Shown here piece after piece: positions 1-21,195 of a stretch of DNA of 48,431 bases. Within the stretch, counting starts at the first letter, position 1. The number at the start of each line of letters is the position of its first letter. The notes beneath the pieces were generated by a model, which ran no database searches, was not told the origin of the DNA, and was given only the letters and a program-made list of their open reading frames with translations. The DNA lies in the NCBI GenBank assembly GCA_012646845.1, contig GCA_012646845.1_4707.1; one strand, 5' to 3'. Source of the DNA: a phage. Both the position numbers and the translations under genes were made by a program.

Positions 1-723
1 CAGGGTACACGTCTTGGCGGATACGCTTATCGCAAAGTGGTTCCTGATAGCGGGTTTACACCGCAATTGTATCGTCATCGTGCTATCATGTTAGCGTTTA
101 CGAGATATGACGCTAACGTTGTTAACTTAACCGTGAACCATAAGAACGGAATTAAAGGTGACGATTGGTTTGATAACCTCGAATGGGCGACATATGCTGA
201 GAACAATCAACATGCTCGTATGGCAGGGTTGTGTATAGGTACATCAAAACCTGTTTTGGTTTATGATTACCGTGCACGAATCGAACGTCGTTTTAATAGT
301 ATCGCAGAAGCGGAACGTGCTTATCCGTACGTGCCGAAAGGACGTTTCAAATGGTGGGTGAACAATCCACCAAAACGTATTCCAGAATGCGATTTGTACA
401 TCAAGTTTGCCACGGATAATACGCCTTGGCCTGAGTGGAAACTCGGAGAAGATCGTCGCGTCGAGGACACCGATGGTCGTGGTATTCTTGCTATTAATAA
501 AGAGACGAACGAGCGACATGTGTTCCCATCGGTAACTGCTGCTGCAAATGCGTTAGGAATCTCCTGGATTACCGTAAGACGTCATTGCGATCGTCGTGCA
601 GTGCCTACGAAACAACCTTGGTGTTTTCGTTATGCTGATGATATTGCCGCCATGCCTGATTTCGATGTTAATAAATTAGTTCCTAAGAAGAAGCGTGTAT
701 TTAATGTTCCATTAGAACGATAA
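1..723 (+). CDS. HNH homing endonuclease (5'-partial; frame is open to position 1)
   Basis: HNH-type motif VNHKNGIKGDDWFDNLEWATYAENNQHA plus a C-terminal DNA-binding repeat-like segment (GILAINKETNERHVFPSVTAAANALGISWITVRR); reading frame continues upstream of the window. Confidence 0.8.
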   Translation, partial: QGTRLGGYAYRKVVPDSGFTPQLYRHRAIMLAFTRYDANVVNLTVNHKNGIKGDDWFDNLEWATYAENNQHARMAGLCIGTSKPVLVYDYRARIERRFNSIAEAERAYPYVPKGRFKWWVNNPPKRIPECDLYIKFATDNTPWPEWKLGEDRRVEDTDGRGILAINKETNERHVFPSVTAAANALGISWITVRRHCDRRAVPTKQPWCFRYADDIAAMPDFDVNKLVPKKKRVFNVPLER

Positions 724-3126: not shown

Positions 3127-3495
3127 TTAGTTGGGGTAGGATACTACTTGTTTACCATTTGGTGTATGCAGGATTACCGCTACCTCCAAAACGCGTTGTA
3201 CTGCACGTTCACGTATTTCATCGTAAATAAATAGTTTATGCGAAAAGTCTGCTGGTGTACTGACAACCGCATTGACTTCCACTCTATTCTCTACGTGGCG
3301 TACAACGATATGCTTCACGGGCCCTTCTTTAAGTGTAAGGCAATGCTCGGTAGTAAAACACCGATACTTGGGGCTCCATCTGTCGATATGTTCAAAGATA
3401 ATGGTGGCGATTTCTTTAGCGTCTTTTCTTGATCGTCTGAAATATCTATCAGTCCTATCAAGCATCGTGTTAGCGAGTTTAAAAGCCTTCTTCAT
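3127..3495 (-). CDS. hypothetical protein
   Basis: ORF track; AAGAGGGAGAT upstream of ATG. Confidence 0.6.
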   Translation of the reverse strand: MKKAFKLANTMLDRTDRYFRRSRKDAKEIATIIFEHIDRWSPKYRCFTTEHCLTLKEGPVKHIVVRHVENRVEVNAVVSTPADFSHKLFIYDEIRERAVQRVLEVAVILHTPNGKQVVSYPN

Positions 3496-3525
3496 ATCTC
3501 CCTCTTCTTAGCTACTTTAGGATGA

Positions 3526-4128
3526 TCACATGCTTTCTAGCATATTGACGATCATGGAACCCATACCGAAACTCGGTCTTTCACCGATGTACTCAGCAAG
3601 CTGGCGATGGACGTCTTTTGGATTTCCTTCTTCACCATCGGCGTCGATGTAAACCGAAAAAGAAAATGAATCGGAATCCACGCTGATAACCAGACGACGC
3701 TCATTGCGTTCCTTGAGTGTGTCGACAATAGCTGCTTTCAGTACCGCGATCGCGTTCATCGCGTGCAAGATATCCCCATCGGGTTTCGGCAGATCGATCT
3801 TTTCTTTCAGATCGATATTGATGTTGGTTACAATTGGGTTGAGGTCGACCTTGACATAATCGTTAGGGTACATGCGAATAATCGCACGATCGATATCTGA
3901 ACCGTAAAAGTCAACACGTGGCTTTAACACTTCTTTGTTTGGATCCATGTTTTCATCCATACCCGCCTGTAGAAAGCGTTCTACGTTATCCAGTTCACGA
4001 TAGATTGACGCTTCGATTTCTTTCAGATAGTTGGCTGCGGTTTCATGTTCTTTACGCAGCTCGTCTTTAAGGAGCTGTACGGTGGTTTCACTGGAACGAA
4101 TGCTGTTTGCGAATTGGGTAATTGACAT
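3526..4128 (-). CDS. hypothetical protein
   Basis: ORF track (TTG start at 4158); preferred ATG at 4128 with AAGGAA SD. Confidence 0.6.
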   Translation of the reverse strand: MSITQFANSIRSSETTVQLLKDELRKEHETAANYLKEIEASIYRELDNVERFLQAGMDENMDPNKEVLKPRVDFYGSDIDRAIIRMYPNDYVKVDLNPIVTNINIDLKEKIDLPKPDGDILHAMNAIAVLKAAIVDTLKERNERRLVISVDSDSFSFSVYIDADGEEGNPKDVHRQLAEYIGERPSFGMGSMIVNMLESM

Positions 4129-4176
4129 ATCGAATTCCTTAAATTCTCTTGAGTTCAATTAATGATGAAAAGCTGT

Positions 4177-4201
4177 AAAAAAGGGTGGGGCGAACCCCAC
4201 C
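4177..4201 (-). terminator. intrinsic terminator-like hairpin GGTGGGG-CGAA-CCCCACC followed by U-run on minus strand
   Basis: perfect 7-bp stem, tetraloop, A-run 4177-4182 on plus strand. Confidence 0.6.
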
Positions 4202-4226
4202 AAAACGTCAGACACACGCAGGAAAA

Positions 4227-4649
4227 TTAATTCAGTGACGTGTACAACGCATAACGACTATAGATCTCAACCGCTGGTCCGTTATGCGTTAACAGACCAT
4301 CTCGGTTGTAGTATTGGAAAAATGAATAACGTTTGTCGAAGTGATAAACGAAAGCAATGTCTTTGTCAAGACCTGTGATGCGCGGTCTGTTTTTATCTAG
4401 CAATGCTTTGACTTTTAACAGTGTTGCCGCACGTGCTTTAACATTAGGGATTAATCCATCACAGTCGATATAAACCGTGTAACCTGTTTCAGATGTTGCG
4501 ACGGTTGTATTGCGATTGATGCGGAAGATTTTTGTTTTGTATGTATCATCTTCAAGAATTGGGTTTTGTTTTTCGTATTTTCGTTTACGCAGAAATTCTA
4601 CAACGGTAATATAGTTAGCGGTGATATGTCCGGTTATAGCTTGTAACAT
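4227..4649 (-). CDS. hypothetical protein
   Basis: ORF track; conserved leader with AAGAGGA SD immediately upstream. Confidence 0.65.
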   Translation of the reverse strand: MLQAITGHITANYITVVEFLRKRKYEKQNPILEDDTYKTKIFRINRNTTVATSETGYTVYIDCDGLIPNVKARAATLLKVKALLDKNRPRITGLDKDIAFVYHFDKRYSFFQYYNRDGLLTHNGPAVEIYSRYALYTSLN

Positions 4650-4795
4650 CTTGACATCCTCTTATATTGGATTGATTACAGTTATCTTAAATAGGCGATA
4701 AGATATCTTGCTCTTATCACCTAGGTTGCGTTTTGTTAATAACAAAACGCATCGCCTTAGTGACCTATGTCACTAAGGTAATATAGCCGTGAAAT
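4650..4795 (-). promoter_or_regulatory. conserved promoter/leader element copy A: CTATATTAC motif, two inserted hairpins, conserved 28-nt RBS leader
   Basis: 4650-4677 and 4777-4794 are identical to 32967-32994 and 33039-33056; copy A carries an extra ~51 nt (4726-4776) forming two perfect hairpins. Confidence 0.45.
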
Positions 4796-4830
4796 AGACT
4801 GCGTTAACAAGAAATAAAACAGCATAAAAC

Positions 4831-4870
4831 CTCCTCCCCCATCCTTCAAGAGGACGGTGGGAAGAGGGAG
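4831..4870 (-). terminator. pyrimidine/purine-arm hairpin downstream of gene 4876..5277
   Basis: CCTCCTCCCCC...GGTGGGAAGAGGGAG imperfect inverted repeat (pairs with G-U in minus-strand RNA). Confidence 0.35.
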
Positions 4871-4875
4871 AGAGA

Positions 4876-5277
4876 TTAAATGTCGTGGACGGCATTGCCG
4901 TTTAACCAGCAATACAGCTTAACGCGACACGGATACCGCTTCGTTGCAGCAACCATTTCACCGCGTAAACGCTGGTAGATTTCATCCTGGTGTTCACGTT
5001 CAATGGGGTAATCAGCCCAGCATTCGATCATGACGTCACCATTAGTCAGAATCGTCGTACGCATCCTGTCCTGGACTCGACGATCTTTCCCGGCATTAGG
5101 GAAATACATCCCTTCAGTACGAATAAGGTCGCCACAGGGCATGACTAACCACTCATTCGTTTTGCCGGTATTCTTATAATCCATTACAGCTTGCATTGCG
5201 GTGTCAACGCTAAAAGAAACATAATTCCAAACGGGGGTCCAACGATAGATTGCGGGTTGTTCAAGTGTTTCGTTCAT
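4876..5277 (-). CDS. hypothetical protein
   Basis: ORF track; AGGAAA SD. Confidence 0.6.
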   Translation of the reverse strand: MNETLEQPAIYRWTPVWNYVSFSVDTAMQAVMDYKNTGKTNEWLVMPCGDLIRTEGMYFPNAGKDRRVQDRMRTTILTNGDVMIECWADYPIEREHQDEIYQRLRGEMVAATKRYPCRVKLYCWLNGNAVHDI

Positions 5278-5491
5278 GAGGCGCTTTTCCTATTTTTATT
5301 TTCTGCACAGGATAAATTCAACGGCATAAAGCCCTTCCCTGCCCTTATATGGGGCGGGAAGAGTTTATGACCGCAATGAGAATCTCTCACGACAAGCTCA
5401 CGACGATTATCGCATCACCCCGCGAGTGAGGGAGATCAGGATCACCTCCTACGTCGTAACGACAGTAATCCCGTTAACGTCGCCTTAGGCA

Positions 5492-6130
5492 TTATGCGAA
5501 GCGACGCATGTAACCTGCCAGATAGTTACGTGTATCGAAGTAAGCAATTTCAGGAATTGCGATATTAAGGTCGATAGCACGGATTTCAACTTGGCGACGG
5601 CTTTCATCATAGATCGCATCCATCAGACGCAGTACTGTCAGGAAAGCCATGCGGGTATGGTAGTCCAGCGGCATGTTGTCGATACCGCGATACAGATAAC
5701 GGTTTGCGTTAAATGCCCCTTCGCGGTTATCTTTCCAGATCTTCAGAATATCAGCAAAGGCGGTGCGGAAAACCTCAGGATTATCCACATCCAGTAACGC
5801 ACGGAAAGCAGACATTAAAGACCGCTGATGACGGATCAACGACTGCGGCGTTTGCGGCATGGTCGGACCCATTTCTTCAGCATATTTTTGGAACGGGGCA
5901 ACCAGGGTTGCGGCACGAGAAGCAACGATAGAAATAGCAGAGGATTCATTCACCGCTGGTTTCGCAGGCTTTTCTTCAACGGCGGTTTCCTTCTTCTCGA
6001 CAGCGACCGTTTCCGGTTGTGCTACAACGTTGCTGGTCGAAGCAGCAGCCACACCATTTTCCACGGTGGTCTCTACTGCTGTAATCTTTTCTTCCACTTG
6101 TGCGGAACGTTGGTCTTTATTCTTGCTCAT
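5492..6130 (-). CDS. hypothetical protein (acidic, low-complexity N-terminus)
   Basis: ORF track; AAAGGAAA SD. Confidence 0.6.
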   Translation of the reverse strand: MSKNKDQRSAQVEEKITAVETTVENGVAAASTSNVVAQPETVAVEKKETAVEEKPAKPAVNESSAISIVASRAATLVAPFQKYAEEMGPTMPQTPQSLIRHQRSLMSAFRALLDVDNPEVFRTAFADILKIWKDNREGAFNANRYLYRGIDNMPLDYHTRMAFLTVLRLMDAIYDESRRQVEIRAIDLNIAIPEIAYFDTRNYLAGYMRRFA

Positions 6131-6155
6131 GTCTATTTCCTTTCATTTAACAAGG

Positions 6156-7457
6156 TTAACTAATATAAAGTTCAGGATCGTAAGGCGCTAACGATACACT
6201 GGCGTTATGCATTGCTTTCATCATAGTGTTCATGAAAACGTTGTTTACACCGGTGATCTCTGCCCCGATCGCGTCTGGGGTTGGAGCCATCGCGTTACCG
6301 CAACAGGTAGCACAGTATTCCAACGGACCCGCTTTACAGCGCTGAGGATCACGTAACTTGATGGTTTGTCCTTCCAAGGAAGCGAATAATTCAGCATCAA
6401 TAAGTTTAAGCGCTGCGCCATCGATCATGTAACGGCCGACGAGCAGTTTATCTTTGATGTGGTCGCGGTTTACCGTGAACAGAATATGTTCTTGGGTACC
6501 GCAGTCGTCCATCGTGATCTTAAGGTTCTGTGTTGCACGTTGCGATTCTTTAGCCGTTTGTCCAGCTAAAGCGGTCAACGCACCACGCGAGAACGAACCA
6601 GCACGTGCACTGTTGTTGTACTCCGCCCAATGGTCGACGCGCATCCCTTCGGCCAGGCTGTGCGTGATAACGTTACGTTTACCAGGGTCAACGAAGTCGG
6701 CTTCAACCCCCATCATGATGTGTGTTTTCTTTCGAGTATTACCGAAACTCTTACCGGGGTTAATATAGAACCCTTCCGATTCATCGCCCTTAAAGGATTC
6801 CTTATCCATTTTGGTTAGCGTGGCTTCGAGTTTGATCAGTTCTTCAGGCGTAAACTTACCTTCCTCTTGCAAGCGCGCTAACTCTTTATCACGATAGGCA
6901 ATAATATCATCATCGACCGTTAACGCTTTATCGCTCATTGAAGGCACAATTAAGCGGTTAATGGCGGTTAATGCGCTGATATTGTTGGTGAATTTCTTCA
7001 CCTCGCTTGCGTACAGTGGACCAATCGGACGTTCGTTAGGATCGGGTATTCCCTCTTCGGGATCATCTGCTACGCGCGGTGCAATCAGTGATTCTAGTGT
7101 ACCGCTGGTTAACCGTCCTGCCTGATATTCAATCTGAATACCGAAAGCGTCATAAAGGACGTACATATTGAACAACGCTTCACCGAAGGTTGTGGTGGTT
7201 GTGTTCTTAACCGACGGTAGATCGCCAGGCGCAAGCTCCAACGGATCCCAGAAATTCAACAAGGGTTTTGTTGGTTCTGTTTCCCATTGGTGTTCTTCAC
7301 CGTCGATGGTAACCGTAACGATGTTACCTTGACGACGTAATTTAGGCTGATACTTCTCAGCGCCGCCTTCCGTAAAAGCAAATGCGTCGTTAATCCACTC
7401 AAGATAACGGTAGTGCCCTTCACGCAACGCGTAAAGGAAATAATCACGAGGTGTCAT
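6156..7457 (-). CDS. multisubunit RNA polymerase beta-prime-like subunit, C-terminal fragment
   Basis: ITMDDCGTQEHI matches bacterial beta-prime VTEDDCGTHEGI; downstream C-x2-C-x-G (CATCCGN) and AIGAE segments at the spacing seen in RpoC; AAGGAG SD. Confidence 0.6.
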   Translation of the reverse strand: MTPRDYFLYALREGHYRYLEWINDAFAFTEGGAEKYQPKLRRQGNIVTVTIDGEEHQWETEPTKPLLNFWDPLELAPGDLPSVKNTTTTTFGEALFNMYVLYDAFGIQIEYQAGRLTSGTLESLIAPRVADDPEEGIPDPNERPIGPLYASEVKKFTNNISALTAINRLIVPSMSDKALTVDDDIIAYRDKELARLQEEGKFTPEELIKLEATLTKMDKESFKGDESEGFYINPGKSFGNTRKKTHIMMGVEADFVDPGKRNVITHSLAEGMRVDHWAEYNNSARAGSFSRGALTALAGQTAKESQRATQNLKITMDDCGTQEHILFTVNRDHIKDKLLVGRYMIDGAALKLIDAELFASLEGQTIKLRDPQRCKAGPLEYCATCCGNAMAPTPDAIGAEITGVNNVFMNTMMKAMHNASVSLAPYDPELYIS

Positions 7458-7470
7458 GTAACAACTCCTT

Positions 7471-8343
7471 TTAAACGTGGGTCAGGTCACCGTGACGTGA
7501 AACGAACTCTGATAACGCTCGAGTTGCTTCTTTGGATTCTTCAGCCATCGGGAAGTTTGTGGTAACAAGTTCTCGTAGGACAGGAATGATTTCGTTATCT
7601 TCAAGATCGGAAGCCAACGCGAATGCGATCAGTTCTTGGGTGTACGCATACGGCTGCTGACGTAATGCGGCAAGCTGATTCCGACACTGCGACATTAGCA
7701 GGTCCAGTGGAACCGCTATCGTACCCCCTTCATCAATATACTGACCGAATACCGGTGGGAACGCATCGCTGATTACACGAATTCGTCGACGGATGCGATC
7801 AGGAATCTGGACGTTTTCTTCATCAGCGATATTTTCGCTGTCTTTCTCCAGCTTCTTGGTTAACACCTGCTGGATACGTGGGAGCAGGCTTGAATGCACG
7901 AAACTGATTAATGATGCTACGCCCGCAGCATCGACACCGTAAATATAATGCACGCATTCCGCTAGCGCTTCAGCTGTGGTGTAGTCTTCATCTTCAACGA
8001 TGGCGAGTAGAAAAGCGGTATCGTCATGTGTTTCCAGGTCTAATAACGTAGACGCTAACGCATGAAGATACTTCAGGCTATCCAGGGATAGTTGTCCTTC
8101 GTTAATCCGTATCCCGAAGGCAAGCAATTGTTGTTTATAAAGTTCGATACACCCGTTTGTTAAAATGACATCTAATTCGTTTAAATCGTATTGTTCCCCA
8201 GCACCTGACAACATCGTACTACAAAACGTTTCCAGTTGCTCGCATTTAAAATCTTGGTATAAACGATACATGCAGTGCTGTAACAGCGTACGCCTTGTTT
8301 CAGGGATCTTACCTTCTAACAAAGCCAAGACGGAATCAATCAT
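7471..8343 (-). CDS. hypothetical protein
   Basis: ORF track; ATG at 8343 preferred over GTG at 8349. Confidence 0.55.
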   Translation of the reverse strand: MIDSVLALLEGKIPETRRTLLQHCMYRLYQDFKCEQLETFCSTMLSGAGEQYDLNELDVILTNGCIELYKQQLLAFGIRINEGQLSLDSLKYLHALASTLLDLETHDDTAFLLAIVEDEDYTTAEALAECVHYIYGVDAAGVASLISFVHSSLLPRIQQVLTKKLEKDSENIADEENVQIPDRIRRRIRVISDAFPPVFGQYIDEGGTIAVPLDLLMSQCRNQLAALRQQPYAYTQELIAFALASDLEDNEIIPVLRELVTTNFPMAEESKEATRALSEFVSRHGDLTHV

Positions 8344-8439
8344 ATCCACTCCGATGCGGTAAATGTCTACTAGCTCTCATAATCTATTGAAGAAACTACC
8401 AGCTTACGCCAACTTAGATTAATCAGGAGTAACCATCCC

Positions 8440-8913
8440 ATGCCAGTTTCATCCAAACCAAGAAAAAAATCCGTAGGGAACCCTAAAGCTCAGGAAACAA
8501 CAGCGATTCGTTGGGACGAGTTACGTGAACCTATCGAAAACTGCGAATTGTTATTAGGTACCCTGGGTGCAGCTATTTACCAAGCGACGCAACCCTGTCG
8601 TTTACGATTAACCCAAAACAAACGTGATGAGTTCGTTGCGTTATCAACGAGCACGAATAAAGATCTGACCGAACTTCAAACCGAGTTGACGACGATCAAG
8701 AACTCCATTACGCCGATGTACGGTAAAGAAGTTGATGAACAAAGTATTCTGTTACAGTACAACTACGGGATGTCGTTAATGAACATCCTGGAACGCGCAT
8801 CCGATATTCTGCGTCCTGACGTTGCACGCCTAAGCCAACTGCGTGTCGAAGGGATGGAGAACCAGATCCGATTCGCTAACAGTGTTAAATCTCAAGGAGC
8901 CACCGAAGCATGA
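8440..8913 (+). CDS. hypothetical protein
   Basis: ORF track; ATG at 8440, stop overlaps next start (ATGA). Confidence 0.6.
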   Translation: MPVSSKPRKKSVGNPKAQETTAIRWDELREPIENCELLLGTLGAAIYQATQPCRLRLTQNKRDEFVALSTSTNKDLTELQTELTTIKNSITPMYGKEVDEQSILLQYNYGMSLMNILERASDILRPDVARLSQLRVEGMENQIRFANSVKSQGATEA

Positions 8914-10568
8914 GCGAACAAGAAAAAGAAGTCGTGACGAATCAGGAAGCCACCGAACGTTCAGAGTCGTCCGTTGAAACTACGATTCCGGCAAGTGAGG
9001 GTAAAGACGAAGCTGTCACTACCGAAGGAGATGTAGCGGCTCCAGAAGCAACCCGTGAAGAAGAACCCTCACATCCACCGCTGGTTGATTTCTCGAAGGC
9101 GACGATACGTTTCCAATGCGAAGACATTCGTCCTAAGAGCCCAAAGAAAACAAAACGTCAGCCATTGGTGTTACCGCTGTATTCTCCGCGTGTACAGACA
9201 GCGTATTACAAGGAATACATCAACGAAGCAATGGATACCGTACAAGCCATTGTCGCTCAACGCGGTAAACCTTCGGACGAGCAATTTGATAAATTCAGTA
9301 AAGCGGTAGTGCAATCGGTTGCTGATGGGCAATACCAACCGCGTGGGCCAGCTCATGATCGTGCGTTGGAACGTAAGGGCAGTCAGTGGACTAACGTACC
9401 CGTAGACTCATCGGGTGTTGGTCGTGTTATTCCTGGCATCCCGCAACCGAACCATATTCCTGATGATGTCGAAGCGCCGTTGACAGGAACCGATGCAATC
9501 TATTTTGCTATCCGTAATACGAAATCAGGTGCGCCTGCTGTAATGCCGTTATGGCATAGCGGTATTAAGCTGCAGTTCAATCCACCGTCAAATGAACGTG
9601 TCGCAATTATGCATGAACGTATTGCACGCGATAAAATCCTGGGTGGACGTGATAGTACCGGTTTCCTGTTTTCGGCAACCTCGATTATCACCATGAAACA
9701 TGCTATCGAATTAGCGTTAGAATGCTGTTACATGGCCAACGTACCGAACCTGGATATCCAGCGTTTGAAAGACATTATTCCGGTTACCGATGTTCCAGCA
9801 CTGTTGTTGAACGTGCTGGTAACCATGTACCCGTACGGGTATCCTTACGTGCAGACCTGCTATCAGAATCCAGAAACCTGCGACTATCGTGTTGAAGATA
9901 CCGTAAGCTTTGCGAAGCTCTATCAAGTTGACAACAGTGCGATTACCAAACGTATGCGACAGATCATGACCGAAGGTCCGGTCATGACCGATGAACTTTT
10001 GCGTGAGTATGCAAACGAACTGGGTGAAACAAACTCCCGTACGCTGGATCTGTCTGACAACGGTTCGGTTATCATTGAGCTTGAAGTACCGAAGATCTCA
10101 CGTCAGATTGCCATGGGCGAACGCTGGTTAAGCGATACGCTGGAAGATCTGCGTGATATTCTATCGCGTCCGTCAATGACTGAAGAAGAGCGTGATCGTG
10201 TTATTCGTGAACGTCAGTTCTATAGCTGGATGCGTCAGTATGATGCATGGATCAAATCGATGCATGTGTCGGTAAACGGTACCATGCGTCGTGTGAGCGA
10301 TGCGGATACGGCAACGGTATTAGCACAGCTGTCTCGTGACAGCGACCTTCGTGAACGCTATATCGATGGGTTGATGCAATTCATCGGCGATTCGACGATT
10401 GCGCTCGCGGCAATGCCTGCCTGGAAATGTCCGAAATGTAATACCGATATTGCTGACAATCTGCGTGACCAGAAATACTACGATCTGATTGCTTTGGATG
10501 TACCCCAGCTTTTTTTTACCCTAAACTCCGTCCAATCTCTTCAGGAGGGGATGGACGCGGTATTCTAA
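8910..10568 (+). CDS. hypothetical protein, 552 aa, acidic low-complexity N-terminus
   Basis: ORF track; AAGGAG SD; no motif recognised with confidence. Confidence 0.65.
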   Translation: MSEQEKEVVTNQEATERSESSVETTIPASEGKDEAVTTEGDVAAPEATREEEPSHPPLVDFSKATIRFQCEDIRPKSPKKTKRQPLVLPLYSPRVQTAYYKEYINEAMDTVQAIVAQRGKPSDEQFDKFSKAVVQSVADGQYQPRGPAHDRALERKGSQWTNVPVDSSGVGRVIPGIPQPNHIPDDVEAPLTGTDAIYFAIRNTKSGAPAVMPLWHSGIKLQFNPPSNERVAIMHERIARDKILGGRDSTGFLFSATSIITMKHAIELALECCYMANVPNLDIQRLKDIIPVTDVPALLLNVLVTMYPYGYPYVQTCYQNPETCDYRVEDTVSFAKLYQVDNSAITKRMRQIMTEGPVMTDELLREYANELGETNSRTLDLSDNGSVIIELEVPKISRQIAMGERWLSDTLEDLRDILSRPSMTEEERDRVIRERQFYSWMRQYDAWIKSMHVSVNGTMRRVSDADTATVLAQLSRDSDLRERYIDGLMQFIGDSTIALAAMPAWKCPKCNTDIADNLRDQKYYDLIALDVPQLFFTLNSVQSLQEGMDAVF

Positions 10569-10630
10569 TCGATCCGCGATACGGGTTACACGACGGGCAA
10601 CTTGTTCGTAATGATGAAAAAATCTGGGAA

Positions 10631-10990
10631 TTGCTATTAGCGCGTAAAGGCGACGGTGGCATGAAACTGAACATCGAAATGGGTATTGCGTACGATACCA
10701 TGTTTGGCTTGTACGATCGCGTCAGCGACTGGACGCCGTTGAAATGGGTTGCTCAGCATCCCGCTGAAGATCCCTGGGACAGATTAGGAATTAAACCCTT
10801 AATCGAAGATTATGTCCGATTCGGTATTAAAGAGTTCATGACGCTGGATGCGTTTTTACAAGCACCGTATCCTTACGCGCAAACGGTACTCAAAATCGCA
10901 CAAGACGAACTGCGGAAACGTAGTGCGGTACTGGACGACGATGAGGACAAGTTACGACGAGAAGAAGAACGTTTACGAAACGGAAAATAA
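10631..10990 (+). CDS. hypothetical protein (start uncertain: TTG 10631 or ATG 10661)
   Basis: ORF track; frame open upstream into previous gene. Confidence 0.4.
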   Translation: MLLARKGDGGMKLNIEMGIAYDTMFGLYDRVSDWTPLKWVAQHPAEDPWDRLGIKPLIEDYVRFGIKEFMTLDAFLQAPYPYAQTVLKIAQDELRKRSAVLDDDEDKLRREEERLRNGK

Positions 10991-10991
10991 A

Positions 10992-11501
10992 ATGGCGAGA
11001 TTTACCAGTTTGATTGGGTTGGATATTTGGGAAACACCGGCCGACGTTCGGGTTATTCCTGTTAACACCGTCGGTGTGATGGGACGTGGTCTTGCCAAGC
11101 AGGCAGCCGATCGTGTGCCCGGTCTTCTTGAAGCGTACCGTAAGCAATGTCAAGATGGGTTTAAGGTGGGCGAAGTCGTGTCGTATCAACACGGTGATAA
11201 CGATCAACTCACCTACGTGCTGTTTCCATCAAAATCGGATTGGCGTGAAAGAACACGACGCGAGTATATCGTTAACGGTTTACTGGCGTTGAAAGCGTGG
11301 TTATTGGAGCTTCAGTTCGAAAGAGACGGCTTCTCATACCACCGTCCGGCTGAACCGTTGATTGTCGCAATTCCTCCGGTTGGTTCTGGTTGCGGTAATA
11401 TCGGTTACGGACAATCCGAAACAATCCAGCCTCAGTGGGTACGCGCACAAATCAAACAGTATCTTGCCACCGTACCGAACGTTCATTTCTACTTGTTCTA
11501 A
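10992..11501 (+). CDS. macro-domain protein (ADP-ribose binding/hydrolase family)
   Basis: VIPVNTVGVMGRGLAKQ and IVAIPPVGSGCGNIGYG resemble the two conserved macro-domain glycine-rich loops; ATG at 10992 in ORF-track frame. Confidence 0.65.
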   Translation: MARFTSLIGLDIWETPADVRVIPVNTVGVMGRGLAKQAADRVPGLLEAYRKQCQDGFKVGEVVSYQHGDNDQLTYVLFPSKSDWRERTRREYIVNGLLALKAWLLELQFERDGFSYHRPAEPLIVAIPPVGSGCGNIGYGQSETIQPQWVRAQIKQYLATVPNVHFYLF

Positions 11502-11517
11502 TGCAGCGGTAACATAA

Positions 11518-11549
11518 CCCTCCTCCAACCCGTAAGGGAAGGAGGAGGG
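11518..11549. terminator. hairpin CCCTCCTCC...GGAGGAGGG with nested CCC-GTAA-GGG, between convergent genes
   Basis: perfect 9-bp inverted repeat read directly. Confidence 0.5.
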
Positions 11550-11566
11550 CTTATGCTGTTATGCTA

Positions 11567-11941
11567 TTAATGTTCGTTCCAGACGGCATCTTCCGGTGGA
11601 ACAATAGGATCTTTCTTCGGCATTGACGGCACTTCATGACGATGTTTACGGAACTGTCCGTCGATAACTTCACGAAGCCGGTACGCATCAACCCACGTTG
11701 ATTTATTGAACAGCTCCAACGTCACAGTTAATCGCGTTCTTGACATTGAATAGCTTTTCTTTGCAATCAAATCGGGATAATTCAGTTGAGCGAACCATGC
11801 CCGTATTTGTGCTTCGGTAAAAGCGATGCTGTAATAACTAAGTTTACCGTCATTAAAATCGTGCGCGTGGGTGTAACGTCCAGCGTAACGCCAAACAAGA
11901 TGCACATTCAGATCTATCCATGGTGGGGTGGTATCAGCCAT
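11567..11941 (-). CDS. hypothetical protein
   Basis: ORF track; GAGGGT SD. Confidence 0.6.
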   Translation of the reverse strand: MADTTPPWIDLNVHLVWRYAGRYTHAHDFNDGKLSYYSIAFTEAQIRAWFAQLNYPDLIAKKSYSMSRTRLTVTLELFNKSTWVDAYRLREVIDGQFRKHRHEVPSMPKKDPIVPPEDAVWNEH

Positions 11942-11950
11942 GCGTTACCC

Positions 11951-12520
11951 TCAACGATTCTTCATCACTTTACCCAGGCTTTCGATATTATCCCAAAAGC
12001 GATTTTTACTTGGCGCATCGCCAACGATAACCGACATCAAATCGCGACGTTCACGACTGATGATGCCCTGCGATTTCCAGATCACCATCGTCCAGCAAGC
12101 AGCCAGAACAAACAGATGGTTAATACTCGGTTTGGTTTGTGCGATGAACGCAAGCCATGCCCAGATACCGGTGTATACTACCGTCACTAAAAAGAGAGAG
12201 ATTGTTGCAACGACAACAACGAAGTTTTGGATGGCTGGCTGATTGGCGTTATCCTGAAAAGCGGTAAGATCAGGAAGATTACCTTCAACGGAACTCGTAT
12301 CATCGATTTCCAATTCTTCGATTTCTTTTCGTATGTCGGGAGCTAATCCGGCATCATCAAGATGCTTCTTTAACCGCTGAATACTTAATCGTTGTCCGAC
12401 AGGGATATTAATGTTGTCGTAACTATTAAGCGCATCAACCAGGGAGCGTCCGTCAACGAGAACCAAGCTCGCAGTACCCATCGTCTGCGGTTTTATTTTG
12501 TAAAGGTCTTTTACTTTCAT
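11951..12520 (-). CDS. hypothetical membrane protein
   Basis: ORF track; hydrophobic segments (VVVVATISLFLVTVVYTGIWAWLAFI). Confidence 0.6.
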   Translation of the reverse strand: MKVKDLYKIKPQTMGTASLVLVDGRSLVDALNSYDNINIPVGQRLSIQRLKKHLDDAGLAPDIRKEIEELEIDDTSSVEGNLPDLTAFQDNANQPAIQNFVVVVATISLFLVTVVYTGIWAWLAFIAQTKPSINHLFVLAACWTMVIWKSQGIISRERRDLMSVIVGDAPSKNRFWDNIESLGKVMKNR

Positions 12521-12541
12521 GTAGACACCACCTCCAACGTG

Positions 12542-15154
12542 TTATACGTCCGGCGTAAAATCAAAAGGAACGTCCGTACGAATGATATCATAACGTTTTC
12601 CTAAGAAATAGAACTCTTCGGGAACCAGACCGGGAACGATGCTATCGCCGATGAACTGTGGGTATGCCCAGATGTACTGAGTGAGTCCTTCGAACATATC
12701 CAGGTTATTTGCGTGGTTACCCATGATACGTTTCCAGAGTTCGCGTTTATACGGTGTTTTAACATCGAACCCATAAAGCGGTGCGAGGTCTTCACCAGGA
12801 ACAAATCCCAGGTAATAGTGGATCTGACTAACCGGGAAACCAAGCGTATCTCGCGGAATGGTGATCGCTTGCTCAGCCTTGGTGACATGCGTCTCAATAA
12901 TCCAGTCGTAGCACTCCGAATAGAACCGATCGAATTTCTCTGGATTATACCACGCTTTGGGAAGATTCAGTTTCTCCGTGAACGCGTTCGACATGATCGT
13001 CGGCAAGAACGGAAGAACGCCGGTTTTGATCTGTGTGTATTTCGATTTTACCCGATTGACTAGATTCCAGCAACTGTATCCTAATTGATCGTTGCAGAAC
13101 TCAACGTAGAGATCGTAATCCCCACCCGATAATGGATTATTAATATCGCCGATGTCTGCCGCATATTTGTTGGGGTATCGGTTATTGAAAGCCAGTTTGG
13201 TTTGGTAATCGTAAATGCACGGTTTATTGTTCTTCGTGTTAATCCACCACCAGGGTTCACCCACCTGCACACAAATGTCTTGGACATGCGGGTAGATGAT
13301 ATCAGCAAACGCGGTTAACACATCCCCTAACCACGCCATCGCGTGTTGGTTGCATGGCGACAACAACCAAGACGGCGGCGTATATCCGGTTGCTGCTATG
13401 TTTCCTTCCCAATCCTGCTGCGCCCACTCGAACGGGCATGCCGTACTCATCAATTCGTAACTTAAACTGATTGTAACAGAGAAATGGTGTTTTGCAGCGT
13501 ATGCGGCGAAAGCTTCATGCCATGCGATACAGGGTGGGTTGAGTACATCTGTGGTGTTCACCAGTAACTTACTCGCACTTGGTGTCCAGACAGTATCGTA
13601 GAAATGCGACATTCCAACATAGTGCACTAATTCATCTTGATATCCCGCATAAACCAGGTTCTCAAATACGCGTTCCGGCGTGATATTGTAATGGTCGTCA
13701 TAAGCGGTTATCGCACGAAGCTCGTGTGGTGTACATTGGTGACGATTAACCGTCATTTCCTGATACACCCCATCAATAGGAAGAATCTCGAGGGTTAAAC
13801 AGAGGTCGATCGGTGTTTCCAGGTAGGTCGTTTCTGTAGCACCTTCCTTATAATGTCGAGAACTCATGCTGAACATCAACGACGTGACCGATTCGAGTTC
13901 GATAGGTTCGTCAGCATAGAACCCCGCCATTGCGTCGTTGAAATCGATCGTTACGATTGCGCTTGTACCGTCTTCAGAGACGTCGGTGGCGTATCGGGTT
14001 AATGAGATATACTGACGGCTATCGTCTTTGTGTACGACGGTTAAAACCGGCGGGTTTTCGGTATCTGCAAAGTTCCGCTGGTCACCAGTAAACGTGATCT
14101 TGGCTTTAAAGATCAAACCGAGCAACGACGTCATGGGATCATACGCAACACAACCATGATCTAGCGTATCCGTTGTCCGCCATTCTATCCCTACCAACCC
14201 GTTAGCGGTATGGCATCGCATATACGCATTAAGTGTCATGTCTTCACTGACAACCGCGAAGTTCTCTGTAGATTGACCATTGATAATCCAATACATCGGT
14301 TGCCAGAGGTTACGCGTGCCTTTTGCGTAGCGGTAGGTTGGTGCACCTTTAGGGTTGCCGTTATTGAGATGGAATACAGCCGTACCTTGGTAATGATCGT
14401 TCGTGTTAATCGGAACACTGTACGCGTCGCCGAGGTCCGTACGTTCGACCTTCGTGACAGTTGCGTTTTCAAACAGCCCACGTAGTGTAGGAAGACCAAT
14501 GTCATCAGGCGCGTTTTCTCGGCGAATCGCGTCCGCGATGCGGTGGGCTAGGGCGGGGTAAATGGTCTCACCCTGCTGTAGGTTTGCAAGACCTACAAAG
14601 CGATCGGGGTTGATACCAGCAATCAATAACTCGACATCGCCCTTCGTTCTATCGTCATGGAGGTATTTCAGTCCAGTAAGATCAAGATGTTGAATTAACG
14701 ACAACAGATTGTACTTACGGTTTTCAACAGTCAGTGCAAGATCACCCGCCCAAACCAAACTTCCCTCATCCGCCGTTACTCTAACGGATTGGCGGCCTGT
14801 GGTGGACGTTGTTGTCGTTTTATTTAATTGTCCTTGTAGGAAGTCGGTTGCGAGGTCAAAGGCAACGCCGTAACGGTCAGCGACCGCCTGCATGATTTCA
14901 CGTAACTGGGTATCTTCTTCAATGATGATCTTGACGGGTATTCCCAAGAACGCCTTGGCGAGGTCTCGCTTAACCATCGAGACGAATACGGATTTGTAAT
15001 ATCGGCCTCCATCTTTCCCTTTAAAAAGAATGGAGGTTGTTTCGGGTGACGATAGAACACGTGCAAATACAACATCGTCGAAAGTAAGAGAAAGTCCGTT
15101 TTTCTCGTTGGTTAATCTTAGTATTTCATTTTGCGCGGTTTCATGTAACTTCAT
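12542..15154 (-). CDS. tail fibre/tailspike-like protein with shared N-terminal anchor module
   Basis: 870 aa; N-terminal ~170 aa homologous to 21881..23635, 21196..21723 and 27286..28116 (RDLAKAFLGIP; NKTTTTSTTGRQSV...LTGLKYLHDDRTKG). Confidence 0.7.
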   Translation of the reverse strand: MKLHETAQNEILRLTNEKNGLSLTFDDVVFARVLSSPETTSILFKGKDGGRYYKSVFVSMVKRDLAKAFLGIPVKIIIEEDTQLREIMQAVADRYGVAFDLATDFLQGQLNKTTTTSTTGRQSVRVTADEGSLVWAGDLALTVENRKYNLLSLIQHLDLTGLKYLHDDRTKGDVELLIAGINPDRFVGLANLQQGETIYPALAHRIADAIRRENAPDDIGLPTLRGLFENATVTKVERTDLGDAYSVPINTNDHYQGTAVFHLNNGNPKGAPTYRYAKGTRNLWQPMYWIINGQSTENFAVVSEDMTLNAYMRCHTANGLVGIEWRTTDTLDHGCVAYDPMTSLLGLIFKAKITFTGDQRNFADTENPPVLTVVHKDDSRQYISLTRYATDVSEDGTSAIVTIDFNDAMAGFYADEPIELESVTSLMFSMSSRHYKEGATETTYLETPIDLCLTLEILPIDGVYQEMTVNRHQCTPHELRAITAYDDHYNITPERVFENLVYAGYQDELVHYVGMSHFYDTVWTPSASKLLVNTTDVLNPPCIAWHEAFAAYAAKHHFSVTISLSYELMSTACPFEWAQQDWEGNIAATGYTPPSWLLSPCNQHAMAWLGDVLTAFADIIYPHVQDICVQVGEPWWWINTKNNKPCIYDYQTKLAFNNRYPNKYAADIGDINNPLSGGDYDLYVEFCNDQLGYSCWNLVNRVKSKYTQIKTGVLPFLPTIMSNAFTEKLNLPKAWYNPEKFDRFYSECYDWIIETHVTKAEQAITIPRDTLGFPVSQIHYYLGFVPGEDLAPLYGFDVKTPYKRELWKRIMGNHANNLDMFEGLTQYIWAYPQFIGDSIVPGLVPEEFYFLGKRYDIIRTDVPFDFTPDV

Positions 15155-15176
15155 TGAAAACCTCAGCCCTTTAGAA

Positions 15177-15818
15177 TTAGATGTACTGCTTACCGCCCAC
15201 GAAGGAAGTTAGCCAGTTCCCACTGACAAGCTGTGATACCCAGCCAGGCACTGCCCTGCCATTCTGGCTCATGACATTACCACACCAGCCAGGGAATCCG
15301 GGACGGATATAATAGAAAGTTAAATTGTAGAGATGGCAATTCCATACCGCAACGTTATGTTTACCAGAAACCGCTTTAAAGACAAACGCAACGGGTAAAG
15401 GCGACGATAACAATTCGGTCACAGGGACGGCCGACCAGTTCGCATTCGCATTCCATGGTTGCCAGGTATGGCTACGCGAGTCGCAAAATACGTTACCGTT
15501 GTTACCGCGCCCACCCGCATGCCACCACAGCGACGGACTCATGTTCTTAAGTGAGGTAAATTGCTGTGGTGGAATATTAGGAATAATAACAGGGTTGGTA
15601 CCTTGCCCATGTTTCTTTTCTTTTGCGTTTACATACCCACTTATCGATTCGAGGTATTTGACACCAGGATAATTGTTCTGGACTTGTGTCGCAATATCAC
15701 GGACATCAAACGTCCAGCAGATCATGGTGTTGTAGTAAGCATCGGTGTTGTCGTACCAAGCGTTACCATCTTGTAAACGTGCGCCACTATTCGGTGTTTT
15801 ATCTGTGCTTATAGCCAT
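15177..15818 (-). CDS. hypothetical protein, paralogue sharing C-terminal module with 15925..16590
   Basis: C-terminus GFPGWCGNVMSQNGRAVPGWVSQLVSGNWLTSFVGGKQY nearly identical to neighbour; ~100-bp near-identical DNA. Confidence 0.65.
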   Translation of the reverse strand: MAISTDKTPNSGARLQDGNAWYDNTDAYYNTMICWTFDVRDIATQVQNNYPGVKYLESISGYVNAKEKKHGQGTNPVIIPNIPPQQFTSLKNMSPSLWWHAGGRGNNGNVFCDSRSHTWQPWNANANWSAVPVTELLSSPLPVAFVFKAVSGKHNVAVWNCHLYNLTFYYIRPGFPGWCGNVMSQNGRAVPGWVSQLVSGNWLTSFVGGKQYI

Positions 15819-15924
15819 GTTATTGTCCTATACTACGATGATTGAGATATCGAATGTCGGACGCTTGGTGCCGTCTGGTAGTACATACAGAAACACCCAC
15901 AGATAAAACAATAACTCCCATCAA

Positions 15925-16590
15925 TTAAATTGATGTTAGATACTGCTTACCTCCGACAAACGATGTCAACCAGTTCCCACTGACAAGCTGTGATACCCAG
16001 CCAGGCACTGCCCTGCCATTCTGGCTCATCACGTTACCGGCCCATCCCGGAAAACCAGGTCGGAAAATATATACTTGAATATGTGTTAAAGCGTTATCAT
16101 TACCTCCACCAACAGCAACATTACGACGTCCGGATGATGGGAAATATTCTTTTAAGAACAGGGGATCGTTTGCCAATAAAGAAGCAGGCCAAGGATTAGC
16201 GGATGCGTCAACATCGAATTCGGTCCATCGCCATTTGCGCCCAGTATCGAACCAGGTTGACGTACCACCGCCACGCACCGCAAGATTGCGTGCGTCACGG
16301 GCACTGTATATTGATTCGATGTTGCGCCACCCACCTTTTGCGACGTTTGCCGCATAGCAAATCGCATTACCACCATTCTTCTTTTCGTAAACGGTTCGTT
16401 TGATATGAACACGGTCGATAAACGCTTCACCGTATTTGTTGACGAGTGTTTGCGCGATATCACGAAGATCGTGCATATGAAAGGCGATGTCTTCGTTGTG
16501 GAACCACGTTGTCGGGTTCCAAACGGTGCCGTTTGGTTCGGCACACATCGATCTGATGTTGTTGCGTTGATTAATCGCGATAAAGCCCAT
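15925..16590 (-). CDS. hypothetical protein, paralogue of 15177..15818
   Basis: start set to ATG 16590 (GAGGTGGACC SD), aligns with N-terminus of paralogue. Confidence 0.6.
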   Translation of the reverse strand: MGFIAINQRNNIRSMCAEPNGTVWNPTTWFHNEDIAFHMHDLRDIAQTLVNKYGEAFIDRVHIKRTVYEKKNGGNAICYAANVAKGGWRNIESIYSARDARNLAVRGGGTSTWFDTGRKWRWTEFDVDASANPWPASLLANDPLFLKEYFPSSGRRNVAVGGGNDNALTHIQVYIFRPGFPGWAGNVMSQNGRAVPGWVSQLVSGNWLTSFVGGKQYLTSI

Positions 16591-16653
16591 GGTCCACCTC
16601 GTTCCTGTTCTCGAAGGAAATTTCATACGATGACGCCATAACAGCTCCCCCAT

Positions 16654-17253: not shown

Positions 17254-17670
17254 TTACACAGTTTTAGGAAATTCCGGCCAATCGATATTTGGCGCGGCGT
17301 CGGTATCGATAGCCGTCACCTCGTCAATGTAATCCAAAACAGCATTAAGTTGGGCTGTTTCTTCCGGAGTCAGTTTTCGCCCGGCCCGTAATTTTAACTG
17401 AATAAGATCAATGGAAGCCAGCGCAGAGTCAATCAGAGATTTTTTCATCTGTTCTGCCTCGGCGACGAGATCTTCGTGTTGCCGCTCGGGTTCCGGAGGT
17501 GCGGTAAACTCACCATTTGAGTATAACCAACCTATTCCGGGCGACACAGCTCCCGTATCGCTAATGCCGACCAACTGTTGATTGTCAGATACATTGAGTT
17601 CTGCTTCGCCATCGTAAACGATCGTGTTTACTACCACCCCATTTTCAATAACAGCGTATGATGTACTCAT
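17254..17670 (-). CDS. tfa: tail fibre assembly chaperone (lambda Tfa-like)
   Basis: C-terminus AEAEQMKKSL...LDYIDEVTAIDTDAAPNIDWPEFP matches lambda Tfa C-terminal domain; ATG overlaps fibre stop (TAATG). Confidence 0.8.
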   Translation of the reverse strand: MSTSYAVIENGVVVNTIVYDGEAELNVSDNQQLVGISDTGAVSPGIGWLYSNGEFTAPPEPERQHEDLVAEAEQMKKSLIDSALASIDLIQLKLRAGRKLTPEETAQLNAVLDYIDEVTAIDTDAAPNIDWPEFPKTV

Positions 17671-20600
17671 TACATAAACTCCTCGATGATGCAAATCCCG
17701 TCAGCGCCACGCCCACCACGCATAACGGTTCCAGTGTAACCGTTATCGTAAGCGCCGCCACCGCCCGAACCTCGTGCGAGGCCGTTTGACCCGCCACCAA
17801 CAGCTGCGCGACCACCGCCACCCCAATATGACGCACCCCCACCACCACATACAGGAAATGCGCCAGCTTGACCGTCATCACCATCACCACCTGAAATGCG
17901 TATATCCCCGGTACTAGGTGTACCACCACCCCCACCACCAGTGTTTGTGACGGTTGTTTTTCCTGCGCCTTGCCCACCGGGAGCAGTTAGTAGGGATGCA
18001 AATTTACTATCCCCGCCCCTGTTTCCAATTGTTGCCCCGGAACCACCAGTGCCACCAGAACCAATTACGACAGAATAACTAGTAGCTGTTACCGCTATAA
18101 CCGAAATTACTGTTCCACCGGCCCCACCGCCAGCACCAAAAAACGTTTCGCTGTTGGAAAAAGCCTGGCAACCACCGCCGCCGCCTCCACCACCGGTTAA
18201 TATTACTCTAATCCGTTTTGTTCCTTGTGTTGGGGTGTACGTCCCTGACGATGTGAAAACACGCGTATTCAGTAAACGTCCGACATATCCGCTAGAATCG
18301 GCTAAACCAAGATCTTTAGCTGCTAACGTTATATTAGCTGTACCGTCAAACGGTTTACCGTTAATCGTGCGCGCGGTCTGCAACTTCGTGGCCGTTGCTG
18401 CGTTTCCTGACGTATTCTGGTTTCCCGCGGCGTTAACACCTGGTAGATTGATGTTCGCACTACCGTCGAAAGATACCCCACCAATGGTGCGGGCTGTTTT
18501 CAGTTTTGTCGCCGTGGCAGCATTACCGGTTGTGTCTTGGTTACCGGTGGTGTTTACCCCAGGCAGGTTGATATTGGCTGTTCCGTTAAATGAAACACCG
18601 CCAATCGTCCTTGCTGTTTGCAGCCTCGTTGCGGTTGCTGCGTTCCCCGTGGTGTTTTGGTTACCCGTTGCATTCACGCCCGGGATACTATCCTTAGATG
18701 TGTAGATCTGTGCCCATTCCGACCAGTTAGAATCGGCTGCATCACGACGTGAACGTAAATAAGCCGGAGCGTGTGTGCCCGAGGTACCTGACCAACCAAT
18801 GAGGATTTCACCTTCACCGGCCGATGAAGCACCTTTGAGGTGAATAACGTTACCATAGGCGGTTGGGTAGCCGTTACTGTACGCTTCATACATCTGGATA
18901 CCGGTATTACTACCTTGGGTCGCATTAGCTAACGCGGTAACACGACCTTTGGAGGCGAGAGCGGTAATACTGAAGCTAATGTCCTTAGTACCGTCAAAGG
19001 CGACCCCATTAATCTTCCGTGCTGTTTGGAGTTTCGTGGCAGTAGCCGCGTTACCAGAGGTACTCTGATTACCTGCTTTGTTCACGCCAGGCAAATCAAT
19101 GTTGGCTGTTCCATCAAAGGACACACCCCCTATGGTTCTCGCTGTCTGGAGTTTTGTTGCTGAGCCAGCGTTTCCGGAAGTACTTTGATTACCTGCCGCG
19201 TTGACGCCCGGTAGGTTAATGCTAGCAGAACCATCAAAAGAAACTCCACCTATCGTGATCGGTGTTTTCAATTTCGTGGCTGTCGCAGCGTTACCGGTTG
19301 TATTTTGATTGCCTGTCGCATTAACGCCCGGTAATGCAATATCCGCTGTTCCGTCAAAGGCAACGCCGCCGATTTTACGGGCGGTTTGTAGCTTGGTTGC
19401 ACTAGCAGCGTTACCACTGGTATTCTGGGTGCCAGCTTTGTTAACACCCGGGAGATCGATGTTAGCAGAACCATCGAAGCTGACGCCACCTATCGTTCTT
19501 GCAGTAGCGAGTTTAGCTGCTGTGGCTGCATTGTTACCCACTTTCAGCCAATCATCCCATGGACCATCCTGGCCGTTCCACGATGCCGTTAAACTACGTA
19601 CGTAAATATTGCCAGTACGTACAGTGTAACGTTGCGTTCCACCGAATTGTCCAGCAGGGAGCACTTCAAGGTAACCTGCGGCATTTGCTTCAGGGAAATT
19701 GTGGGCGACGTCCGCATTCGTCGTTATTGGTTTAGACCAAATACCCACAGACGCTTCAACCGGACCGTAAGTATTCAGATTTGCGTCGGTGGGGAGCTGT
19801 CCTCGAAAACGTTGGAATTGTGTCGCCGATAACCCCAACGTTGTTTGCATGCTTTCAATGCTGGATTGCTGAAGTAACGTCCGTGCTGTCGACGTAATCA
19901 CGGTAAGCGCAACTTTATTAACACCGGTGAAATACGGGAGTTTGTCTGCTGATGTCGCTAAACCTGAAAAGGCGGTCAGTAATGCGTTAAGGGGCTGCTT
20001 CCCAGCTAACGCATTTGTTACCGTCGTTGCGAAATTAGGATCGCTTCCTATAGCTCGAGCCAGCTTATTAAGCGTATTTAGCGTCGCTGGTGACGAGTCG
20101 ATCAGCGCCGTGATCGCACGCATCACAAATTCCGTGTTGGCTATCTGTCGACTGCTATTGTTAACTGCTGCGGTGGGCGCTGCTGGCGTACCAGTGAATA
20201 CAGGGCTATTAAGATCCGCCTTGAGGGCGATGAGACGTTTAAGCGCTTCAACATCAACTTTCAGGTTTTCCCATCCGATGAGAGAACCACCACTGCTGGC
20301 ATGGTAACGGTTGTACCAGAAGTCACCGTTAACGCCTAAAAAGAATATTCCCTTCTCTTCGTTTTGTGGACCGGAACTATTTCGTGACGAGCTGATGTAA
20401 TTGATTTCAATAAGACCAGTAAACGTCACTCCTGGGATTATTTTGTTGTCTCCAGCTGACTGTGATACTTGGTAAATCCCCGGGGTTGCGGCTTTAACCC
20501 ATGTTAAGAATTCTGTTACTCCAGCGGTACCGCTAAAATTCTTAACGTCGGTAAGTATCGCCCCATAACCGAACATACCGGGTAGAGCCACTCGTCCGCT

Positions 20601-21188: not shown

Positions 21189-21195
21189 GGTGTTT

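Follow-up and report, generated by a model that had tools for sequence, protein, structure and literature searches.

The minus-strand open reading frame at 6156..7457 encodes, with a probability that we put at about 0.95, the middle fragment of the β′ subunit (Mid-β′, or β′M) of a virion RNA polymerase (vRNAP), the multisubunit enzyme that a Goslar-like, nucleus-forming jumbo phage packages in its particles. The reading rests on a remote but consistent homology to cellular β′, on the place where the chain ends, and on orthologs that have been found in phage heads and virions. Below, "the window" denotes the whole stretch of DNA analysed, 48,431 nucleotides in length.

The gene and its genome of origin

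The frame specifies a protein of 433 residues, running on the minus strand from an ATG start to a stop codon at 6156-6158. A canonical Shine-Dalgarno sequence, AAGGAG, can be read at 7465..7470 on the same strand, 7 nt 5′ of the ATG, and 13 nt separate the ATG from the TAA stop of the upstream gene (7471-7473). The initial annotation had listed this frame together with three motifs, and all of them are present: ITMDDCGTQEHI at residues 314-325, CATCCG at residues 382-387, 63 residues past C319, and AIGAE at residues 396-400.

At the DNA level, the window is colinear with Escherichia phage Goslar, with 93.7% identity across 3520-15870 and 95% identity over 5000-9000. The protein itself is 98.6% identical to Goslar gp78 (gp078, YP_009820763.1), which has the same length of 433 residues and occupies the same locus; the two differ by six conservative substitutions, D5E, L11M, I46V, N68S, D71E and F358L. 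RefSeq labels gp78 "RNA polymerase beta subunit", an imprecise name since the protein is β′-like. A tblastn search of the phiKZ genome matched a single place, gp80, at 32% identity (E 6e-42). Both phiKZ gp80 and SPN3US gp42 are orthologs, with 29-32% identity over 97-100% of the length and chains of ~431-449 residues; both are head-associated and retain synteny with the gp79 homolog, and they differ from the present protein in the host range and genus of their phages and by a sequence divergence of ~70%. Judged from these sequence relationships, the source genome is that of a Goslar-like, phiKZ-type, nucleus-forming jumbo phage (a chimallivirus, Chimalliviridae), which bears out the genome type first proposed from the presence of a β′-like gene.

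The surrounding genes fit a cluster of virion genes. Immediately upstream on the minus strand lies a 292-residue gene (7471..8349), a homolog of phiKZ gp79, annotated "structural head protein" (PHROG 5038, E 6e-26), for which Pfam gave only a sub-threshold HEAT match. The adjacency of gp79 and gp80 also occurs in phiKZ, and the window genes at 7471-8349(-), 8440-8913(+) and 8910-10568(+) match phiKZ gp79, gp78 and gp77 in size and order. Downstream, a 212-residue minus-strand gene (5492..6130) is, by PHROG 18957 and the Goslar annotation, the positional counterpart of Goslar gp77, reported to be a capsid decorator protein (bioRxiv 10.64898/2026.04.21.720040). The minus-strand run of genes, and with it the cluster, appears to end at a strong hairpin resembling an intrinsic terminator, GGTGGGG-TTCG-CCCCACC with T6 after it, at 4184..4201 on the minus strand; it is the first convincing hairpin downstream, and a terminator is annotated at the equivalent position in Goslar. 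No match was obtained in the window with Rfam or in a tRNA scan. Matches to σ70-type promoters within 4000-9000 were at chance level, with 7 found and 6.6 expected, and have no bearing on a phage that relies on RNA polymerases of its own.

Homology to β′ and residue-level anatomy

Searches with the single sequence gave little. Pfam returned no match to the 433-residue protein even at E 10, and phmmer against the PDB gave a marginal match (E 0.05) that aligned residues 263-329 with E. coli β′ 758-824 without gaps. The Pfam RNA polymerase models miss the protein because of its extreme divergence, ~16-18% identity to cellular β′ by Foldseek, and since they also miss all of the Goslar RNA polymerase subunits, their silence is uninformative here. 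A large family emerged from an exhaustive HMMER search: there are 1,282 representatives at 50% identity, of which 370 lie below E 1e-30, and nearly all have 415-460 residues. When a profile built from a 90-sequence alignment of this family was run against all PDB chains, 78 matches were returned at E ≤ 0.01, and every one listed was a β′-type RNA polymerase chain. The best was a bacterial β′ (E 1.1e-9), and the non-virion RNA polymerases (nvRNAPs) of phages were also matched, that of AR9 (7s00_D) at 1.7e-8 and phiKZ gp74 (7ogp_D) at 3.6e-7. Against E. coli RpoC directly, the profile reached 5.3e-11 over residues 740-905.

The predicted fold agrees with the profiles. An AlphaFold2 model computed on the 90-sequence alignment has a pLDDT of 93.6 and a pTM of 0.82, and the top 50 Foldseek matches to it in the PDB are all β′ chains or chain D/F of the AR9 nvRNAP, with E-values from 3e-11 to 1.5e-8, a probability of 1.00 and 360-500 aligned columns; TM-scores normalised to the query lie between 0.42 and 0.56. 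The protein is a genuine homolog of RNA polymerase β′. The initial annotation had called it β′-like from its motifs, and a check set beforehand, a profile or structural match to RpoC, turned out positive by both routes.

To place individual residues, we used rpoC of MG1655 as the E. coli reference and mapped positions through the profile alignment and the ungapped phmmer alignment, with conservation counted over the 90 aligned family sequences. We take the functions of these E. coli positions as established, with a bridge helix at ~770-805, Zn ligands at C814, C888, C895 and C898, and trigger-loop residues M932, R933 and H936. The bridge helix corresponds to residues 274-309 (6531..6638, minus strand), which form a long helix in the AlphaFold2 model. 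Within it, R285 aligns with E. coli β′ R780 (conserved in 88/90 sequences), G287 with G782 (83/90), T295 with T790 and G299 with G794 (90/90 each); R291 is likewise invariant among the 90 relatives.

The bridge helix is followed by a predicted Zn-binding segment, residues 319-385 (6303..6503, minus strand), identified from the profile alignment to E. coli RpoC. All four cysteines are present, C319, C374, C382 and C385 corresponding to C814, C888, C895 and C898, and each occurs in 90/90 sequences, so that the equivalent of the second Zn site of β′ is predicted here. Trigger helix 1 spans residues 397-417 (6207..6269, minus strand) and is helical in the model. Its register was set by eye, from the family consensus ...FMKAMHG against E. 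coli ...LTMRTFHIGG, and is supported by the profile alignment to phiKZ gp74, which over positions 315-421 runs through the helix. The sequence here reads ...TMMKAMH417 where E. coli has ...LTMRTFH936, which pairs M413 with M932 (81/90, the rest Leu), K414 with R933 (50/90) and the invariant H417 with H936 (90/90). The motifs that had first suggested β′ thus find their places in the alignments, DDCGT in the C814 region, CxxCxG at C895/C898 and AIGAE at the start of the trigger loop.

Towards the N-terminus, TTTFG at residues 88-92 corresponds to the TT.GR motif of bacterial β′ (TTVGR 572-576 in E. coli), and an alignment to a Streptomyces-type β′ begins at this point. With this motif included, the residue mapping implies that the protein spans roughly E. 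coli β′ 520-950, the N-terminal limit being approximate. Compared with this part of RpoC (~520-950), it has the same fold and functional residues at ~16-18% identity, here as a free-standing polypeptide.

A middle fragment of a virion RNA polymerase

The chain ends 16 residues past the trigger-loop histidine H417, and the corresponding distance is 15-21 residues, with a median of 16, in 90/90 relatives. Stopping here, the protein has neither trigger helix 2 nor the C-terminal regions of β′. Nor is it a complete single-polypeptide β′, as the chain contains no DPBB domain or NADFDGD catalytic loop, no trigger helix 2 and no a17-a20 or region H. The protein is a middle fragment of β′, and in this respect the initial annotation, which had taken it for the C-terminal half of a split β′, has to be amended.

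The comparison with phage nvRNAPs brings out the difference. In AR9 (7S00_D) and phiKZ gp74 (7OGP_D), the bridge helix, Zn site and trigger helix 1 are homologous to those described above, but these chains, of 631-677 residues, continue into trigger helix 2 and on to the C-terminal regions of β′ in the same polypeptide and belong to a late enzyme that is not packaged. In general, β′ C-terminal proteins of the nvRNAP type have 630-680 residues and continue for ~250 residues past the trigger-loop histidine, whereas the present protein, at 433 residues, gives only partial matches to them and does not extend through trigger helix 2.

The break at the trigger-loop tip falls at what we take to be the place of the E. 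coli SI3 insertion. The largest subunit is likewise split in cyanobacteria (γ/β′) and in archaea (A′/A″), where the polypeptides assemble into one catalytic core; the archaeal break precedes the trigger loop, and we know of no cellular counterpart to a split inside the trigger loop such as that between Mid-β′ and C-β′. N-β′ and Mid-β′ are divided past the DPBB domain, at the point where the cyanobacterial subunit is also split (review PMC7598289), and the β′In6 insertion has been placed immediately after region a16 (PMC5105663).

Published work on the orthologs connects the family with the virion. The vRNAP core has been described as N-β′, Mid-β′, C-β′, N-β and C-β (review PMC7598289), and the phiKZ vRNAP as gp178, gp149, gp180 and gp80 (PMC8287921). 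SPN3US gp42, of 431 residues, is the β′M of that phage; mass spectrometry of tailless particles associated it with the head, and it was gone from heads after knockout of βN, so that its packaging is βN-dependent (PMC5105663). In Goslar, virion mass spectrometry detected five vRNAP subunits, gp78 together with gp196, gp205, gp207 and gp210 (bioRxiv 10.64898/2026.04.21.720040). Early transcription by the injected enzyme is resistant to rifampicin (PMC13282480). For the exact protein encoded here, packaging and activity are probable by analogy with these close orthologs.

By its extent on E. coli β′, Mid-β′ contributes the module of the secondary channel and bridge helix, the predicted second Zn site, and trigger helix 1 with the catalytic histidine. 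From homology and the literature, the following scheme may be proposed for the rest. Mid-β′ would assemble with four distantly encoded polypeptides, namely N-β′, which bears the catalytic DFDGD loop, N-β, C-β and a small polypeptide proposed as C-β′, into a vRNAP that would function without α, ω or σ. The enzyme would be made late in infection, packaged in the head and injected with the DNA, and would then transcribe the early genes independently of the host RNA polymerase.

Other explanations of the gene were weighed against this scheme. The failure of Pfam and the E-value of 0.05 in the single-sequence PDB search are what one would expect if an unrelated protein merely resembled β′ in its motifs by chance, and we give this essentially no weight: the family profile reaches E-values of 1e-9 with exclusively β′ matches, the fold match has a probability of 1.0 over nearly the full length, and at least seven functional residues stand in exact positional correspondence. 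Assignment to the late, nucleus-resident nvRNAP, as its β′ C-terminal subunit, has more substance, since the bridge-helix, Zn and trigger-helix core is common to both enzymes and is what the matches to PHROG 3015, 7s00_D and 7ogp_D reflect. Yet PHROG 3015 (nvRNAP-type, 653 positions) aligns only residues 261-389 with its profile positions 212-343 (E 1e-11), whereas the best full-length family, PHROG 2962, aligns end to end, residues 1-432 with positions 1-432 of 433 (E 7e-106). The protein and all of its 90 aligned relatives stop shortly after the histidine, far short of the nvRNAP length; gp80 is the only match in phiKZ by tblastn; and virion mass spectrometry has detected the Goslar and phiKZ orthologs in particles. 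We regard the nvRNAP assignment as very improbable.

Slightly less probable still is an exaptation in which a β′-derived protein has lost its role in transcription and serves, without catalysis, inside the head or in ejection. It would account for phiKZ gp80 being annotated only as "structural head protein", for the missing second half of the trigger loop, and for the return of no vRNAP structure by the PDB searches. It sits poorly with the bridge-helix R, T and G, the Met and His of the trigger loop and all four Zn cysteines, which vary little or not at all among more than 90 divergent relatives at ~30% identity and therefore point to selection for a catalytic-core function, and with the rifampicin resistance of early transcription by the injected enzyme noted above. 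Mid-β′ of the vRNAP remains our preferred assignment.

Partner subunits and the completion of the trigger loop

A β′ fragment of this kind had led the initial annotation to predict further RNA polymerase genes, nearby or elsewhere in the genome. Elsewhere they do occur, in the sibling genome of Goslar. There N-β is gp207 (1,448 residues, PHROG 3148), N-β′ is gp205 (502 residues, PHROG 2986), C-β is gp196 (224 residues, PHROG 3233) and the proposed C-β′ is gp210 (236 residues, PHROG 2926); a further gene, gp247 (423 residues, PHROG 2987), encodes an nvRNAP subunit. The four other vRNAP genes of Goslar lie 115-140 kb from gp78. Nearby, none was found in the window: PHROG scans of its 20 largest other open reading frames showed no piece of an RNA polymerase, the products being an HNH endonuclease, tail fibre or tail proteins, virion proteins, an NAD-dependent ligase, a member of a macro-domain-type phosphatase family, and unknowns. 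Similarly, no match below E 0.5 was obtained in the window by tblastn with Goslar gp196, gp205, gp207, gp210 and gp247, while a control query, the HNH endonuclease gp206 that adjoins gp205, matched a related HNH gene at 19-489. The phage from which the window derives would accordingly be expected, by analogy with Goslar, to encode N-β′, N-β, C-β and C-β′ partners.

A search for NADFDGD, the signature suggested for finding the N-terminal part of β′, had a similarly divided outcome. A scan of the window DNA with the degenerate motif yielded three near-matches, each with 3 mismatches, which we rejected as a β′ catalytic domain; two lie on the plus strand inside the long minus-strand frames 12542-15154 and 23676-27272, and the third reads QADYDGD in a frame of 75 residues. 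In Goslar, the motif is found in what looks like a second exon of gp205. The annotated coding sequence of gp205 stops at ...GLGGD, and FDGDTVSVNV... is encoded by a short frame on the far side of an annotated group I intron and HNH gene; splicing, as the sequence suggests, would join the two as GGDFDGD. For the Goslar nvRNAP N-β′ gene, which also has an intron and HNH gene, we looked downstream of these for a second exon and found none.

Since Mid-β′ ends at the trigger-loop tip, any second trigger helix would have to be supplied in trans. As this holds for every aligned relative, we tentatively propose, at somewhat less than even odds, that two polypeptides together make up the trigger loop, which is thus completed in trans, and that the chain break lies in the former SI3/β′In6 insertion; in a more radical variant, the enzyme would have no second trigger helix and would catalyse with half a loop. 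No vRNAP structure was among the PDB search matches against which either could be compared.

The natural candidate for the second polypeptide is Goslar gp210. Its homology to phiKZ gp176 was confirmed here, and its link to SPN3US gp244 is given by matches in SPN3US-like Salmonella phages together with the published work (PMC5105663). The gp210 family is found in 275 phage records and closely tracks Mid-β′, found in 311. None of our searches linked it significantly to β′, in agreement with the published C-β′ assignment, which had an HHpred E-value of 0.05 and rested on genetics and proteomics (PMC5105663). The gp210 family profile matched nothing in the PDB, and hhalign against E. coli β′ 1120-1407, with the single E. 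coli sequence as template, gave a probability of 0.1. In an AlphaFold2 model of gp210 (pLDDT 81), the N-terminal domain is rich in β-structure and helices come after it; Foldseek found no match to this model, the best E-value being 0.18. Among the matches listed, none of them significant, a cyanobacterial SI3-tail (8h02_A) ranks first and E. coli SI3 appears twice (2auk_A, 4iqz_A), and plastid β″, cyanobacterial β′, archaeal Rpo1C and AR9 7s00_D also appear; these entries are not mutually independent. Such a pattern is compatible with a chain break inside the former trigger-loop insertion and proves nothing.

Mid-β′ is already known: it is named in a review (PMC7598289), has been dissected genetically and proteomically in SPN3US, and has been detected in Goslar virions. 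We assign the window to a nucleus-forming jumbo phage of the Goslar kind, with an injected, host-independent, σ-less RNA polymerase for its early genes, and to that picture our analysis adds nothing new; it does touch on how the active site is completed in an enzyme with its trigger loop cut at the tip. Its value for annotation lies in the name, which would accurately be "Virion RNA polymerase β′ subunit, middle fragment" in place of the RefSeq label. The exact protein is already public on 21 contigs, the longest of 241,409 bp, among them ~240-kb contigs in assemblies of E. coli isolates, where it is labelled "hypothetical protein".

The Mid-β′ neighbourhood and homologs of the Mid-β′ protein

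The gene that lies directly upstream of Mid-β′ (7471-8349 (-)) is gp79-like, an adjacency also seen in Goslar and phiKZ, where gp79 is a head protein. The two reading frames are separated by a 13-nt gap in the window, whereas in phiKZ they overlap by 14 nt. Against Pfam, the sole match of the gp79-like protein was to HEAT, below threshold.

Four metagenomic homologs of Mid-β′ (P0013, P0030, P0053 and P0078) carry an additional N-terminal domain of roughly 145-240 aa, marked by 'YHGS...AVFAT...' and unrelated to any RNAP subunit. In one of the four, a near-threshold match to DUF6886 was detected (26.0 bits, with a cutoff of 27). A fifth homolog, P0127, has an internal insertion instead of the N-terminal domain. 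The insertion had no match in Pfam and includes a stretch, 'VVDGGHRLQKA', in which a similarity to a ParB/Srx-type motif can be seen by eye.

The exact Mid-β′ protein occurs in NCBI on 21 contigs, the longest of 241,409 bp, where entries such as EFI3750071.1 name it 'hypothetical protein [Escherichia coli]'. Clustering at 90% identity places it in a group of 321 members, with isolate assemblies of E. coli, Salmonella and Shigella as sources; Goslar-like jumbo phage genomes are therefore often co-assembled with enterobacterial isolates.

The β′ catalytic motif, introns and homing endonucleases

By scanning the window for motifs, we found 'RFQADYDGDSV', which nearly reproduces NADFDGD, the catalytic motif of β′, in a 75-aa ORF with a TTG start (31552-31779 (-)). 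Both ORF and motif are kept in Goslar, inside the annotated gp102 (69 aa), although many of the surrounding residues differ. Since the ORF is too short for a DPBB domain and had no match in a PHROG search, the DYDGD resemblance is probably a coincidence.

In Goslar itself, both N-β′ genes (46572-46817 (-) and 4270-5911 (-), NC_048170) appear to be split at the catalytic motif by annotated group I introns. An HNH gene, gp206, and a group I intron lie between the vRNAP genes gp205 (N-β′) and gp207 (N-β). The gp205 CDS ends in ...GLGGD, and a frame reading FDGDTVSVNV... occurs downstream, just before gp207. The CDS of gp247, the N-β′ subunit of the nvRNAP, ends in ...YNADFSFFN at the intron; a second exon, sought downstream of the intron and HNH gene, was not found. 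The annotated CDSs of gp205 and gp247 look truncated. The window, for its part, begins within an HNH/NUMOD homing-endonuclease gene (37-723 (+); Goslar gp069) that is kin to gp206 and to phiKZ ORF179.

Insertions, tail fibre and other differences from Goslar

Comparison with Goslar revealed an insertion of about 1.75 kb that carries the gene for a 590-aa protein (21881-23653 (-)). PHROGs 1037 and 2935 ('virion structural protein') match the N-terminus of this protein, at residues 17-189, and also the N-termini of the neighbouring 870-aa and 276-aa proteins. These common N-terminal matches suggest that the 590-aa protein is an additional module, of the receptor-binding or tail-fibre kind, attached to an adaptor that is shared. 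On a second insertion, of about 0.7 kb, lies a 242-aa ORF (15925-16653 (-)) with no match in a PHROG search. The P1 gpS-like tail fibre (17670-21269 (-)) measures 1,199 aa, compared with 1,324 aa for its Goslar counterpart, gp090; its central part, which has internally repeated segments, is only 68-88% identical to that of Goslar. The tail fibre is thus a likely point of difference in host range.

Elsewhere, the window lacks about 600 bp at 1547-1559, corresponding to Goslar gp070, and about 500 bp at 29659-29690, corresponding to gp096. Near 3145-3520, about 375 bp are additional or replaced relative to Goslar, and a stretch near 31.1 kb (31033-31197) is shorter than its Goslar equivalent.
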